Source: an uncultured bacterium
GTDB taxonomy: Bacteria > Patescibacteriota > Minisyncoccia > SW-4-49-11
Reading direction: 5' to 3'
DNA length: 64,000 nt
NCBI GenBank assembly: GCA_937864235.1
Contig: CALMJI010000018.1
Location: 73,955 to 137,954 of the forward strand
Below the pieces are notes generated by a model, which did no database searches, was not told the DNA's origin, and saw only the letters and a list, made by a program, of their open reading frames with translations. Below, one piece after another: positions 24,339-61,629 of this stretch. The position numbers and the translations under genes are program-made. Position 1 is the stretch's first letter, and the number at the start of each line of letters is the position of its first letter.

Positions 24339-24611
24339 AAATTCCCCTCTCGAGAGATAGCAGGCTTTGCCTGACGGGGTGGAGTATTTCTGTACTTCAC
24401 CTTTCTGTCTCCCTTTGGAGGGAGTACCCGTAATAGACTGAAAGTCTGGGAAAGGGGTCGGGAAAACGGCAGTTTTCCCGTGGAGGAAGGCTGGGAAACC
24501 GTGAGGTTTCACAAGAGCAAATCTCATTTGCGACGGGGGAGGGTGGATAAAACACAAACTAAAACTCTATCCACCTCCGGCACTCTGTGCCACCTCCTCC
24601 AAAGGAGGACA
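24339..24611. repeat. GC-rich modular intergenic repeat (includes GCAAATctcATTTGC hairpin module)
   Basis: Shares modules with 25248-25492, 37190-37300 (inverted) and 60200-60290. Confidence 0.8.
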
Positions 24612-36917: not shown

Positions 36918-37390
36918 CTCAATCCACCCCGTCCAGCGTAGCTGTCCACCCCTCGAGAGGGGAATTAGCTCAGTCCTACTCCGGCCTATCGGCCACCTCC
37001 CCCGAGGGAGGACAAGAGGGCAAGTTGCAAAGTACATCCACCCTCCCCCTTCGGGGACTCCCTCCTAAGGGAGACAGAAGCTCTGAAGGCCAGAAATCCA
37101 ATATTCAAAATACACTCCACCCCGTCCAGCATAGCTGTCCACCCCTCAAGAGGGGAATTTAGCTCAGGCTGCAAAATACGGTCCTCCTCCGCCGTCGCAA
37201 ATGGGATTTGCTCCTGTGAAACCTCTCGGTTTCCCAACCTTCCTCAACGGGAAAACTTCTGTTTTCCCAACCCCTTTCCCAGACTTTCAGTCTACTTCGT
37301 GCCACCTCCCCCAAGGGAGGACAAGAGGGCAAGTTGCAAAGTATCAAATACAGGCGACTGAGAGGTCGCCCCTACGAGATGGGAGGGTAG
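36918..37390. repeat. GC-rich modular intergenic repeat (about 470 bp, two tandem composite copies)
   Basis: Module set similar to 38420-38645; contains an inverted copy of the GCAAAT..ATTTGC / gtttcccaaccttcctc module seen at 24430-24540. Confidence 0.8.
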
Positions 37391-49424: not shown

Positions 49425-49471
49425 AATTAAGTTAAGTAAAGAGATATTTTATTATAAAAGAAAGTAGTTTG

Positions 49472-49544
49472 TGGACCGTACTGGGATCGAACCAGCGACC
49501 TCTTCCATGCCATGGAAGCGCGCTACCAACTGCGCCAACGGCCC
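49472..49544 (-). tRNA. tRNA-Ala (anticodon GGC)
   Basis: Hand-folded cloverleaf: acceptor GGGCCGT/ACGGTCC with the G3:U70 Ala identity pair, D-arm GCGC-AGTTGGTA-GCGC, anticodon loop AT-GGC-AT, T-arm GCTGG-TTCGATC-CCAGT; CCA not encoded. Confidence 0.8.
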
Positions 49545-50180: not shown

Positions 50181-51011
50181 ATGATTGGTTTCCGTGCACA
50201 CAATGGTTTTGCCCGCCTTAAAATGTATAATGGTATTATGGGTGCCTTGCACTTCTTTCAAGCTGGTTTGATGCTATATGTATCTAAAGAAGCTTTATTC
50301 CCTGTAACGACTAATTACCTTGACTTTGATTCTGCTACTCGTAGTGCAGCTCCTGTTACAGAGAAGTTTTTTGATATAAATCTTGGTCCAGCAGTAGCTT
50401 TGTTTTTGTTATTATCTGCTATTGCCCACTTTATTACAATATTACCGAATGTTTATCCTTGGTATATCAAGAATCTTAAAAATCATATCAATGTCATCCG
50501 ATGGTATGAATATGCTCTATCTTCTTCTGTGATGATTGTACTTATTTCTATTTTAGTAGGAATTTATGACTTCTCTACTCTATTATTGTTATTTGGAATC
50601 AATGCTAGCATGAACTTGTTTGGGCTAATAATGGAGCAGATTAATCAGGATCGTAAAGATGTTAATTGGCTTCCTTACATCTTTGGATGTATTGCTGGGA
50701 TTATACCTTGGATTGTAATTTTCCTACATTTCCAAGGAGCTATTTCATCCGCTGAGGTGGAAGTTCCTACTTTTGTCTACTTTATTGTATTCTCTCTATT
50801 CGCGGTATTCAATGTATTTGCACTTAATATGTTCTTACAGTATAAGAAAATTGGTCCTTGGAAATCTTATGTATTCGGAGAAAAATTCTATATTTTCTTA
50901 TCCCTATTTGCTAAGTCTCTCTTAGCTTGGCAAGTGTGGTCAGGGACTCTAAGAGGTACTGAGAATGAAGTATCTGCTATTATCTCTAATATATTTAGTA
51001 TATTTTCATAA
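50181..51011 (+). CDS. heliorhodopsin (7TM retinal protein, inverted topology)
   Basis: Blocks as I recall them from heliorhodopsin 48C12: RLKMYNGIMGALHFFQ (N-terminal), IRWYEYALSSSVMIVLI, FGINASMNLFG, FGCIAGIIPW, and retinal-Lys block LFAKSLLAWQVWSGTL in TM7. Confidence 0.75.
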   Translation: MIGFRAHNGFARLKMYNGIMGALHFFQAGLMLYVSKEALFPVTTNYLDFDSATRSAAPVTEKFFDINLGPAVALFLLLSAIAHFITILPNVYPWYIKNLKNHINVIRWYEYALSSSVMIVLISILVGIYDFSTLLLLFGINASMNLFGLIMEQINQDRKDVNWLPYIFGCIAGIIPWIVIFLHFQGAISSAEVEVPTFVYFIVFSLFAVFNVFALNMFLQYKKIGPWKSYVFGEKFYIFLSLFAKSLLAWQVWSGTLRGTENEVSAIISNIFSIFS

Positions 51012-59135: not shown

Positions 59136-59651
59136 ATGGACTTTTTGGGGACTGTTACTGGTATATTGTTTTGTTTCTTTTTATTTATATTTATATACCT
59201 CTGGTGGATGGCGTGCCTTTTACTTATTCATCATAATAAGCATATTTTACTCTATAATTTTAGGAACTACATTAATAACAAATATTTCTATATCATATAT
59301 AAAAAAGACTTGAAGCTAAAAATATCATGGTTATTTTTAGCTATACTACTAATCGTACTTATAAGTCAAACTATTCTACTAATTAATAGTGTTGGAGACT
59401 GTGGGGATGGAGATGGATCGTATAGGTTTTATGAAAGATTAATCGGTACGAATGGTTCGGAATACTGTAATACAGGTAAAAAAGCAGCGCCTCCTTTAAA
59501 TTTTGGAATATTAAATAGCATAGGTCTTTATTCTAATTTTTTAGCATTAACTATACTTATTATTCAAGTTTACTATAGAGCTGTTATAATAATTATCAAA
59601 AGCATTCCTAATACTATTAATAATATACTAAATTATATTTTTAAGATCTAG
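59136..59651 (+). CDS. hypothetical small membrane/secreted Cys-containing protein
   Basis: ORF frame 59136-59651; a shorter product from TTG near 59293 (MKLKISWLFLAILLIVLISQ, signal-peptide-like) is possible. Confidence 0.3.
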   Translation: MDFLGTVTGILFCFFLFIFIYLWWMACLLLIHHNKHILLYNFRNYINNKYFYIIYKKDLKLKISWLFLAILLIVLISQTILLINSVGDCGDGDGSYRFYERLIGTNGSEYCNTGKKAAPPLNFGILNSIGLYSNFLALTILIIQVYYRAVIIIIKSIPNTINNILNYIFKI

Positions 59652-59738
59652 AGACTATATAGACACCCCATTCCCCAACATATATTGACTAAATTGATTT
59701 TATTATGTAAAATAAACAAGTACCTTAGAAAACTTAAT

Positions 59739-60141
59739 TCCGCGATAGCTCAGCGGTAGAGCAGTCGGCTGTGAATGCCTTCTTGAGTCGTCGTAAAATA
59801 ATTATATTTTTATGTCTGACAAAAGAAAATATTCTGATCGTGCTGAATATCTTTTTTAGAAATTCACTCCGATCTAGTCGCAGCCTCTTCTGGTAACAGA
59901 AGTTGAAACACGAGGTGAATTGCTGGAAGCCTAAGGTAGTAATACTAAGGCAATCAGCAGCCAAGTCTAGCAAAACTAGAAAGGTTCAGAGACTATCCCA
60001 AAAGGGAGTACATTGTAGCAATACAGTGGAAGCGCCTCGCTCCATCAAAACGATGGATGATGATATAGTCCACGCCTATTAGAAATATTAGGACAAGGTG
60101 TAACCGATTGGTCGTAGGTTCGAATCCTACTCGCGGAGCCA
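59739..60141 (+). tRNA. tRNA-Asn (anticodon GUU) interrupted by an intron in the anticodon loop (exons 59739-59772 and 60101-60141, CCA encoded)
   Basis: Exons fold as a cloverleaf: acceptor TCCGCGA/TCGCGGA (U1-A72, discriminator G73 as in E. coli tRNA-Asn), D-arm GCTC-AGCGGTA-GAGC, anticodon stem GTCGG/CCGAT, spliced loop CTGT|TAA giving anticodon GTT, variable loop TGGTC, T-arm GTAGG-TTCGAAT-CCTAC. Confidence 0.7.
59773..60100 (+). ncRNA. group I (IC3-like) self-splicing intron inside tRNA-Asn
   Basis: 5' exon ends in U and the intron ends in G; IGS GCAGCC (59879-59884) complements exon GGCUGU; P2 hairpin TCTTCTGgtaaCAGAAG; core blocks GTGAATTGCTGGAAGCCTAAGG and GGCAATCAGCAGCCAAGTC resemble Azoarcus/Tetrahymena P3-P4 and J6/7; CAGAGACTA (P7 5') paired with TAGTC (60066-60070); P8 TCCCaaaaGGGA; P9 hairpin before omega-G. 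Confidence 0.6.
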
Positions 60142-60153
60142 AAATATAAAAGG

Positions 60154-60174
60154 GGAGATTTTGTCTCCTTTTTT
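60154..60174 (+). terminator. rho-independent terminator after tRNA-Asn
   Basis: GGAGAttttGTCTCC hairpin followed by T6; near-identical copy at 63438-63461. Confidence 0.65.
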
Positions 60175-60194
60175 ATATTTCTTGTCTTTTGAGA

Positions 60195-60319
60195 GAGTAG
60201 GATGAGAACCTGGGGAAGGGGTCGGGAAACGAGAGTTTCCAGTGGCGGAGGTATTGGAACCGAGGGGTTCCAAGGAGTGAATCCCATTCACGACTGGTTT
60301 GCAATCCTACTCGCGGAGC
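60195..60319. repeat. GC-rich repeat module followed by a partial direct copy of the tRNA-Asn 3' end (60295-60319)
   Basis: GGTTTGCAATCCTACTCGCGGAGCA versus tRNA GGTTCGAATCCTACTCGCGGAGCCA. Confidence 0.7.
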
Positions 60320-60330
60320 AAAATCCCTTT

Positions 60331-60355
60331 AAACAGCTTATCTTAGCTGTTTTTT
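60331..60355 (+). terminator. rho-independent terminator
   Basis: AACAGCTtatcttAGCTGTT hairpin followed by T6. Confidence 0.7.
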
Positions 60356-60391
60356 GGTCTGTAATACTTATCTATATAAATATGACAATGA

Positions 60392-60453
60392 TTGACATAT
60401 TTAATTTTATATGCTAATGTTTTCTAGTCCTTGTTCTTTCACATCACAGGAGG
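60392..60453 (+). promoter_or_regulatory. sigma70-like promoter plus RBS of the radical SAM gene
   Basis: TTGACA (60392-60397), 17-nt spacer, TAATGT (60415-60420); AGGAGG at 60448-60453, 6 nt before the ATG. Confidence 0.55.
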
Positions 60454-60459
60454 CTTTCC

Positions 60460-61629
60460 ATGAAACTACTTCTTCGTAAAGAGTCCTTTGGAGGAACCCT
60501 CTTCGTACCCTCTAGTGGTAAAAGATTCTATCTTAACACAAAAGAGTACTCAGAGTTAACCTCTACTCACAAATTGCCACCTGATATTGAAAAATCTCTT
60601 GGATTGCAAAATCTGACTAATATCGACCTGATAGTTGTAGAACCTGATTTCTTGCCTATAGAGAACTTTAGCAGCCCAGACAAAGTATTTTTTGAACTTA
60701 CTCGCAGGTGTAATTTAACCTGTATTCAGTGTTTAAATGACTCAGGTTCAGAACTAAGTGATGAACTAAATCATTCCCAAAAGGTAAAGATTATTTCTGA
60801 CTTAGCACAGTCTGGAATACAAGAAGTTCGATTTACGGGTGGAGAACCTTTGGCTGACAAGTCTTGGTTTGAAATCGCCAAAGAGGCAAAAAAATACGGC
60901 TTAAGAGTATCTTTCGGATCAAATGGCACCCTGATAACTGAGCCTGTTGTAAAGCTGATGCAATCAATTGGAGTTAATTCAGTTATTACGAGCCTAGATG
61001 GTCTCAAAGACACACATGAAGCAATTAGAGGATATGCATCGTGGGAAAAAACTATTCTTGCTATTAGTCTTCTCAAAGAAGCAAACATAGAGGTAAGAGT
61101 TAACTTTGTACTAATGAGAGAAAATATTCATGAGGTTTATGACCTCTGTGAATTTATTCTGTCAAAAGGGGTTCCTGTTTTTCTCAGACGATTCATACCC
61201 AGCGGTAGAGGTTCAGGAAGTTTTCATCAAATACTCACTCAAAAAGAATATGATCTTTTGAACCAGTCTCTTAGCCCACTAATTCATCAGTTTGGAAGCC
61301 TAATTCAAGGCCACTATATCAACGAGTCTCCTGTACTATCTAGAATCCCTCTCCCATTTAAAAGAAAAAGCTGTAGTGCAGTGCACAGAGGAATGGTAGT
61401 ACTCCCAAATGGGAAGCTATCAAGCTGTGGTTTTCTTGCAGACCTAGGAGAAGGAGAGATTGGAGACCTTCAAAAGGAGTCCTTCCTTTCCATTTGGAGG
61501 CATCTAAATGAAACTCAATACGTTCATACATTTGAAAGTAGGGTAGGAAAGTTTAACCAATCAAATCCAGGACCAGCTAATGGATGCCTAGCTCTTGCCC
61601 ATGCATACACCAATAAAGGAGAAGGTTAA
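60460..61629 (+). CDS. radical SAM enzyme with N-terminal PqqD-like (RRE-like) extension and C-terminal Cys-containing auxiliary (twitch/SPASM-like) domain
   Basis: CxxxCxxC (RRCNLTCIQC) at about residue 83; N-terminal LLLRKESFGGTLFVPSSGKRFYLNTKEYSELT resembles PqqD/RRE strands; C-terminal Cys (KSCSAV, SSCGF, NGCLA); GGE-like FTGGEPL block. Confidence 0.75.
   Translation: MKLLLRKESFGGTLFVPSSGKRFYLNTKEYSELTSTHKLPPDIEKSLGLQNLTNIDLIVVEPDFLPIENFSSPDKVFFELTRRCNLTCIQCLNDSGSELSDELNHSQKVKIISDLAQSGIQEVRFTGGEPLADKSWFEIAKEAKKYGLRVSFGSNGTLITEPVVKLMQSIGVNSVITSLDGLKDTHEAIRGYASWEKTILAISLLKEANIEVRVNFVLMRENIHEVYDLCEFILSKGVPVFLRRFIPSGRGSGSFHQILTQKEYDLLNQSLSPLIHQFGSLIQGHYINESPVLSRIPLPFKRKSCSAVHRGMVVLPNGKLSSCGFLADLGEGEIGDLQKESFLSIWRHLNETQYVHTFESRVGKFNQSNPGPANGCLALAHAYTNKGEG

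Follow-up and report, generated by a model that had tools for sequence, protein, structure and literature searches.

A subgroup IA group I intron in a Patescibacteria tRNA-Asn(GUU) gene with the remains of an HNH homing-endonuclease gene in its P1 loop

We studied a 64,000-nt (64-kb) stretch of DNA, hereafter the window, from an uncultured bacterium of the Patescibacteriota (assembly GCA_937864235.1, contig CALMJI010000018.1, positions 73,955 to 137,954 of the forward strand), and we describe here a split tRNA gene at 59739-60141 on its forward strand, counted from the first letter of the window, in which exons of 34 nt and 41 nt flank a group I intron of 328 nt. In our estimate it is about 93% probable that this is an ordinary chromosomal tRNA-Asn(GUU) gene that carries an intron of subgroup IA at position 35/36, with a decayed HNH endonuclease gene in the loop of the P1 helix. 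The locus is another member of the family of Patescibacteria tRNA-Asn introns published by Nakagawa, Amikura, Omae and Suzuki (mSystems 2026, PMC13011429; bioRxiv 10.1101/2025.07.03.662931), and not a new host class. The gene is made up of the following parts:

59739-59772, forward strand: tRNA-Asn(GUU) 5' exon, tRNA positions 1-35 with U35 as its last base (TCCGCGATAGCTCAGCGGTAGAGCAGTCGGCTGT); from ARAGORN on the spliced sequence.
59773-60100, forward strand: group I intron, 328 nt, of subgroup IA architecture; from Rfam RF00028, covariation and comparison with the related locus L122.
60101-60141, forward strand: tRNA-Asn 3' exon, positions 36-76 with the CCA encoded (TAACCGATTGGTCGTAGGTTCGAATCCTACTCGCGGAGCCA); from ARAGORN and intron-less alleles.

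When the exons are joined between CTGT and TAA, the 75-nt product is called tRNA-Asn(gtt) by ARAGORN and carries U1-A72 and G73, both of which bacterial tRNA-Asn typically possesses. Syntenic loci for examining the junction were obtained via relatives of the neighbouring HisRS gene (loci are labelled L plus a number, L001 being the window's own contig). One of them, L126 (HisRS 78% identical to that of the window), carries an intron-less tRNA-Asn(GUU) matching the predicted spliced product at 75/75 positions; the intron-less tRNA-Asn genes of L124, L125 and L128 (HisRS 83% and 72% identical) match it at 73/75, and both differences belong to one compensatory pair of the anticodon stem, G31-C39 replaced by A31-U39. 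The anticodon loop of these intron-less alleles reads CTGTTAA. Since the first and last bases of the intron differ from the adjoining exon bases, the insertion point is unable to slide, and this together with the match of the intron-less alleles to the Asn product places the junction at 35/36 and identifies the tRNA as Asn. The splice junction thus lies after U35, fixed by the U35•G wobble of P1, the terminal G60100 and the intron-less allele. A preliminary description of this DNA, made from its letters alone, had proposed much the same anatomy, and its count of 328 nt between the two tRNA halves is exact, as is its joining of them into a tRNA-Asn with anticodon GUU, U1-A72 and G73; it had also seen that the insert follows an exon U and ends in G, and had placed the 35/36 junction correctly where ARAGORN errs.

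Run plainly on the 64-kb window, ARAGORN missed the split gene and found tRNA-Ala (49471-49544) as the sole tRNA. Its intron mode recovered the correct span with the junction off by 2 nt, giving the call Thr(tgt) i(33,328), and the same Thr(tgt) call is returned for at least 55 homologous loci; tFind likewise calls many homologues in this way. The gene might accordingly be read as tRNA-Thr(UGU) with an intron at 33/34, a 2-nt shift after which the 5' splice site still follows a U, the intron still ends in G and a 7-nt loop, CUUGUAA, results. The Thr product, however, differs from the intron-less syntenic alleles, whose match to the Asn junction product refutes this reading; the wobble of the guide sequence falls on U35, while U33 pairs Watson-Crick with A; and U1-A72 and G73 fit, as a matter of general knowledge, a bacterial tRNA-Asn. 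In addition, the sequenced spliced product of a homologue has its junction at 35/36 (PMC13011429). We therefore give the Thr reading practically no chance of being correct. Comparison of the spliced tRNA with the annotated E. coli tRNAs yielded no decision between Asn and Thr, the best partial matches being to tRNA-Lys (85-86% identity).

The intron itself was recognized by the Rfam Intron_gpI model (RF00028) at 59794-60092 with 86.5 bits (gathering score 50; E 1.1e-20), over the full model (1-253) and as the sole Intron_gpI match in 64 kb, a search that the preliminary description had proposed as a check. The precursor folds with z = -5.45 relative to shuffles, and its minimum free energy (MFE) structure shows P1, P2, P3, P4-P6, P7.1, P7.2 and P8. 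Homologues were collected by a scan in which each GTDB species was represented by one genome and two core motifs had to lie at the spacing seen in IA introns; it returned at least 120 loci, mostly from metagenome-assembled genomes (MAGs) of Patescibacteria/Candidate Phyla Radiation (CPR). Structure was scored in a MAFFT alignment of 41 short-form homologues and the window (42 sequences), in which P7 was marked as crossing P3. Standard pairs occupy 87% of the cells, in comparison to 31-47% in controls with the partners displaced by 1-3 columns; compensatory changes occur in 43 pairs, and the covariation score of 0.42 (at most 0.12 in the controls) was reached by 0/500 shuffles. P1, P2, P3, P6a, P7.1, P7.2 and P9 covary. 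The U35•G wobble of P1 is invariant (42/42 sequences), and the adjacent pair, in which intron position +1 meets the base preceding GCAG, shows covariation (G-C 22, C-G 8, A-U 7). The structural elements are listed below, with percentages referring to paired cells of the alignment and IGS standing for internal guide sequence:

59769-59774, forward strand: P1 5' strand, C32 U33 G34 U35 plus intron G1 A2; partner 59878-59883; 5' splice site after 59772.
59878-59885, forward strand: P1 3' strand and IGS, UCGCAG(CC); G59880 wobbles with U35; GCAGC invariant in the alignment.
59887-59902, forward strand: P2 hairpin, CUUCUG-GUAA-CAGAAG; 6/6 pairs with compensatory changes, 95% paired.
59911-59917, forward strand: P3 5' strand, partner 60033-60039; 7 bp, 96% paired, 3 pairs with compensatory changes.
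59921-59959, forward strand: P4 (59921-59926 with 59954-59959) around P5 and P5a, GUAA loop; from Rfam, the MFE fold and the covariation count.
59961-59984, forward strand: P6/P6a hairpin; 5/5 P6a pairs with compensatory changes, 92% paired.
59985-59995, forward strand: J6/7 (UUCAGA) and P7 5' strand GACUA (59991-59995); invariant, which is partly ascertainment, the segment being in the search pattern.
59996-60007, forward strand: P7.1 hairpin, UCCC-AAAA-GGGA; 96% paired, 3/4 pairs with compensatory changes.
60011-60028, forward strand: P7.2 hairpin, GCAA loop; 7/7 pairs with compensatory changes, 83% paired.
60033-60039, forward strand: P3 3' strand; from the covariation count.
60041-60057, forward strand: P8 hairpin; in the MFE fold and the Rfam alignment, 53% paired in the MAFFT alignment, which is poor there.
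60066-60070, forward strand: P7 3' strand UAGUC, which by crossing P3 creates the pseudoknot of the core; invariant, again partly through ascertainment.
60075-60092, forward strand: P9 hairpin, GAAA loop; 6/7 pairs with compensatory changes.
60100, forward strand: omega-G, the last intron nucleotide, with the 3' splice site after it; the columns TG before and TAA after this site are invariant (42/42), and the intron-less allele allows no shift.

The IGS GCAGCC, P2, P7 (GACUA/UAGUC), P8 and P9 are all present where the preliminary description had put them. Its likening of the core to the Azoarcus intron, a member of subgroup IC3, did not hold: the hairpins P7.1 and P7.2 define subgroup IA in the classification of Michel and Westhof, and since both are present between P7 and P3', and both covary, the intron is of subgroup IA rather than IC3. 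An exact 6-nt pairing of the IGS (GCAGCC, 59880-59885) was considered as a feature of the family and rejected, being absent in many homologues, where GCAG and the preceding base are what pairs consistently. The CC (59884-59885) of the window copy is able to pair with G30 G31, an extra pairing that is specific to anticodon stems starting with GG.

Between the 5' splice site and the IGS, the loop of P1 (L1) holds an insertion, the parts of which are:

59775-59877, forward strand: L1 insertion with the HNH gene remnant, 103 nt, comprising a 5' leader, the first 15 codons, the deletion scar and the start of the last codons.
59812-59859, forward strand: truncated endonuclease frame, 15 codons from ATG (MSDKRKYSDRAEYLF), then a stop.
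59859-59906, forward strand: last ~15 codons of the former endonuclease frame (EIHSDLVAASSGNRS) and stop, corresponding to residues 92-106 of the L122 protein (87% identity, tblastn).

In the closest relative (L122/L123), whose HisRS is 93% identical, the intron of this tRNA gene is 555 nt long and contains an intact open reading frame (ORF) of 106 codons. The window intron equals the L122 intron minus 227 nt inside this ORF and is ~97% identical to it elsewhere, with the deletion junction falling, in the alignment to L122, between 59852 and ~59859. The truncated frame (ATG TCT GAC AAA AGA AAA TAT TCT GAT CGT GCT GAA TAT CTT TTT TAG) starts with 14 residues identical to those of the intact L122 protein (tblastn, residues 1-14, 100%, E 4e-6), and the C-terminal codons overlap the IGS and P2. 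The 227-nt deletion removes the whole HNH motif (CxxC...HH...CxxCH), leaving the window copy with no functional, intact endonuclease ORF. From these alignments the insertion is best explained as an HNH homing-endonuclease gene that was deleted, and the deletion appears recent, given that the insert follows the two ends of the intact L122 gene collinearly and with ~97% identity. The 3' part of the gene was probably kept because it shares nucleotides with the IGS and P2, which the ribozyme needs; an ORF that overlaps the guide sequence and P2 would constrain the routes by which such a gene can decay. The preliminary description had noted this stretch as an unusual AT-rich P1 extension of ~105 nt, and while the insertion is indeed there, the notion of an odd structural extension gives way to that of a deleted gene, as indicated by the L122 alignment and tblastn.

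The intact ORF of L122 is an HNH endonuclease by its match to PHROG 2255 (E 1e-27; phage HNH families). The ORFs of the long intron forms scored 19-20 bits against Pfam HNH, just under the gathering threshold of 21.4, and a PDB sequence search with them gave marginal matches only. All 28 long forms listed (28/28) have an extra ~300 nt between the 5' splice site and the guide sequence, encoding a protein of ~100-120 aa with the motifs CxxCGY...FHH...CxxCH; the ORF begins ~30-40 nt into the intron and extends through the guide sequence and P2. Two further loci, L030 and L067, have comparable N- plus C-terminal remnants of ~100 nt. As a side observation, the HNH ORF is broken by a stop or a frameshift in L108, L016, L087 and L075 (4/28 long introns listed), which are further stages of decay. 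Among the listed loci of the family L1 ranges from ~5 to ~350 nt, and since its length varies this much, the P1 loop would tolerate a remnant of this size.

We weighed two other readings of the intron. According to one, the insertion is not neutral endonuclease wreckage but a functional addition, such as an extension with a regulatory or structural role or a micro-ORF. Two hairpins are predicted within the insert with P1 left undisturbed, a 15-codon ORF with its ATG persists, and remnants of similar size occur in two other genomes (L030 and L067), all of which would suit such a function. Against it stand the collinearity of the insert with both ends of the intact L122 gene, and the IGS/P2 overlap, which already accounts for the 3' part that was kept. 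Moreover, 38/48 of the listed introns of 212-385 nt without the endonuclease gene, a group that includes the window, have an L1 of only ~5-30 nt and so do not need an element of this kind. We regard a functional insert as extremely unlikely. The other reading takes the intron for a dead relic in which the 227-nt deletion or other changes disabled splicing, with a functional tRNA-Asn elsewhere in the genome. In its favor, the endonuclease gene is clearly decayed and the genome beyond ~68 kb of the contig could hold another tRNA-Asn. On the other hand, the deletion affects the P1 loop only and ends before the IGS and P2, leaving all core helices intact; the core differences from L122 lie mostly in loops that stay GNRA tetraloops or concern L8 length, with one on the weakly conserved first pair of P5; the exons are 100% identical to those of an intron-less orthologue; and the gene is preceded by a promoter-like site and followed by a terminator. 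The preliminary description had named a second intact tRNA-Asn gene as grounds for rejecting its proposal, and none was found by ARAGORN within the 64-kb window. Taken together, a dead relic seems very unlikely, and the intron is real, well-formed and almost certainly functional.

Several points weigh against a working tRNA-Asn intron of this kind in a patescibacterium. P7 never varies in the alignment, an invariance that is partly ascertainment given that the P7 sequence is part of the search pattern; the covariation of P8 is weak, in a region that MAFFT aligned badly; and no convincing P10 pairing of the 3' exon with the guide region was found at the locus. The contig is NODE_6 (143.9 kb) of the ENA metagenome assembly ERZ3624462, and the search for a second tRNA-Asn covers ~68 kb of it and no other part of the genome. 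Finally, our assignment of the host phylum comes from one named homologue (HisRS 80% identical, Candidatus Paceibacterota at NCBI) and from the taxonomy of the intron's relatives.

If the gene works as we propose, it would be transcribed between two flanking elements:

59685-59713, forward strand: candidate sigma-70-like promoter (TTGACT, 17 nt, TAAAAT), ~25 nt upstream of the tRNA 5' end; from a consensus scan (10/12 matches), with a putative function.
60148-60172, forward strand: intrinsic-terminator-like hairpin and T run, directly 3' of the tRNA.

The precursor would span ~59685 (promoter-like site) to ~60172 (terminator), and the intron would fold into its P1-P9 core, with the guide (59878-59883) pairing with C32-U35 and the U35•G wobble marking the cleavage site. 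Free guanosine would then attack after U35, G60100 would enter the G-binding site, and ligation of the exons would yield the mature 75-nt tRNA-Asn. That the window copy splices is to be expected, since its core is intact and supported by covariation and since homologues did so in published assays. The endonuclease presumably spread the intron by cutting intron-less alleles, and it is dead in the window copy. With the HNH gene deleted in its P1 loop, the locus would represent the stage of the homing cycle at which the intron is retained and the endonuclease lost. Three states occur at this one syntenic tRNA-Asn locus within a Paceibacteria-like clade of 72-93% HisRS identity to the window, namely an intron with intact HNH gene, an intron with deleted HNH gene, and no intron. 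The published survey inferred mostly immobile, vertically kept introns from the rarity of endonuclease genes (PMC13011429). Whether the intron is instead actively cycling in present-day Patescibacteria, through invasion, decay of the endonuclease and loss or re-invasion, is in our view an evenly balanced question.

Many of the loci found in the scan align to the window through both tRNA exons (BLAST), and in its ribozyme core the window intron is 74-79% identical over ~240-270 nt to many family members. A split tRNA was recognized by the intron mode of ARAGORN in 94/120 listed scan loci (95 with L001). When junctions were enumerated under the condition that the 5' site follows a U and the intron ends in G, 75/120 listed loci (76 with L001) proved to be Asn(GUU) with the loop CTGTTAA and the intron at 35/36. 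The Asn introns fall into two length groups, 212-385 nt (48 loci including the window) and 524-630 nt (28 loci); an HNH ORF is present in 28/76 of those listed and a remnant in 3 more, in a sample biased by the search pattern. Patescibacteria/CPR names are carried by 53/75 listed homologous Asn loci. A further 13 listed Asn 35/36 loci (L030, L031, L041, L044, L067, L068, L073, L075, L078, L089, L099, L109 and L120), several with the HNH gene, are titled 'uncultured Gammaproteobacteria bacterium' and stem from a single third-party MAG series; either these labels are wrong or the class reaches beyond Patescibacteria. The scan also brought up introns with IA-type core spacing at 36/37 of CAU tRNAs (Met or Ile2) of Pseudomonadota, at L005, L026, L065 (Vibrio paucivorans), L072, L081, L110 (Photobacterium) and L114, which ARAGORN mis-called as Gln(ctg), Leu(cag) or Arg(ccg). 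Candidate 35/36 introns were seen in tRNA-Asp(GUC) (L063 1009-1324, Campbellbacteria MAG) and in tRNA-Tyr(GUA) (L015 7683-7995 and L049 4577-4891, Falkowbacteria and Buchananbacteria MAGs), matching other intron hosts in the list of Nakagawa et al. (PMC13011429).

The surroundings of the gene offered some observations of their own. The last 17 nt of the tRNA (AATCCTACTCGCGGAGC, 60123-60139) are repeated exactly at 60303-60319, 163 nt downstream, and this repeat is followed by a second terminator-like hairpin (60331-60352). In L126 and L128 there are 3-4 copies of the unit of tRNA 3' end plus terminator over a few kb, the farthest in L128 lying 3.8 kb away from the tRNA, and these repeats look like att-type traces of elements integrated at the 3' end of tRNA-Asn. 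A GC-rich repeat of ~100 nt (60196-60296) lies in AT-rich intergenic DNA, with diverged copies at 37194-37296 on the reverse strand and 24446-24537 on the forward strand, and with copies in relatives (L122 7993-8082; L128 12080-12149). It has two conserved hairpins, GGGAAAAC...GUUUUCCC and GGGAAACC-GAGA-GGUUUC, with a few compensatory changes, and an E-value scan of 59400-60500 gave no Rfam family for it; possible identities are a small RNA and a REP-like element of the lineage. Next to the intron-less tRNA-Asn of L124 (~75 nt away), at HisRS identity of 83%, we found an 87-aa ORF with a GIY-YIG domain (L124 3551-3814; L125 2646-2909), possibly a homing-endonuclease-like gene that stands alone next to this target. 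A heliorhodopsin-family gene (PF18761) is located at ~50181-51011 of the window (L001 16850-17680); heliorhodopsin, RRM_1 and staphylococcal-nuclease-domain genes all lie at most 10 kb from the tRNA, with synteny kept in relatives.

Among known systems, the Patescibacteria family of Nakagawa et al. is the one to which the locus belongs. That work reported group I introns of subgroup IA at 35/36 of tRNA-Asn(GUU), noted that ARAGORN and tFind miss these genes or call them Thr(UGU) 33/34, and found that introns >500 bp encode HNH endonucleases; in vitro assays showed precise self-splicing of homologous tRNA-Asn 35/36 introns, and exon ligation was blocked when omega-G was mutated to C (PMC13011429). 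The window shares with this family the tRNA, the anticodon, the 35/36 site, the IA subgroup, the Thr(UGU) 33/34 mis-call and probably the phylum, and its genome is outside the 95 complete genomes of that study. The tFind survey of Williams (2020; bioRxiv 10.1101/2020.01.27.920355) is a catalogue only, extending the intron-bearing tRNA types from 4 to 21, and so takes intron-split tRNAs beyond the four classical hosts, with the same U(-1)/omega-G logic; its 'Asn.4Ug' type is given here as cited by Nakagawa et al. (PMC13011429). In view of the survey and of the Patescibacteria study, the statement of the preliminary description that tRNA-Asn was not a described host is out of date.

A practical consequence is that tRNA finders which miss or mislabel the gene make a bin seem to be without tRNA-Asn or to have an extra tRNA-Thr, and estimates of completeness and decoding in Patescibacteria would be distorted. 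The IC3 introns of bacterial tRNAs (Azoarcus tRNA-Ile(CAU), Anabaena/Nostoc tRNA-Leu(UAA), cyanobacterial tRNA-fMet and Agrobacterium tRNA-Arg(CCU)) are likewise of a self-splicing class in the anticodon loop, and share with the window intron an anticodon-loop P1 with a U•G wobble and a conserved J6/7 and P7. They insert at 33/34, 34/35 or 36/37 and, to our knowledge, are without P7.1/P7.2, unlike the window intron, which sits at 35/36 and has both hairpins. Phage IA introns with HNH or GIY-YIG endonucleases (T4 td/nrdB, SPO1/SP82, Twort) have in common with it the IA core, P7.1/P7.2 and an ORF looped out from a peripheral helix, and in a search of a phage collection phage introns were the sole matches (~70-73% identity over the core). 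Whereas the phage introns sit in protein-coding genes, the host here is a cellular tRNA, and the small HNH ORF (~106 aa) of the intact relative is located in L1 and reaches into the IGS and P2. In comparison to the published family, current understanding is left unchanged, as class, subgroup, endonuclease and splicing activity had all been reported. The additions made here are modest: the insert is explained as a deleted HNH gene, which puts the window copy between the short forms and the endonuclease-bearing forms of >500 bp, and a three-state polymorphism, which Nakagawa et al. did not report, is found at a single syntenic locus, providing a clean natural series for the life cycle of a homing endonuclease in a reduced genome.

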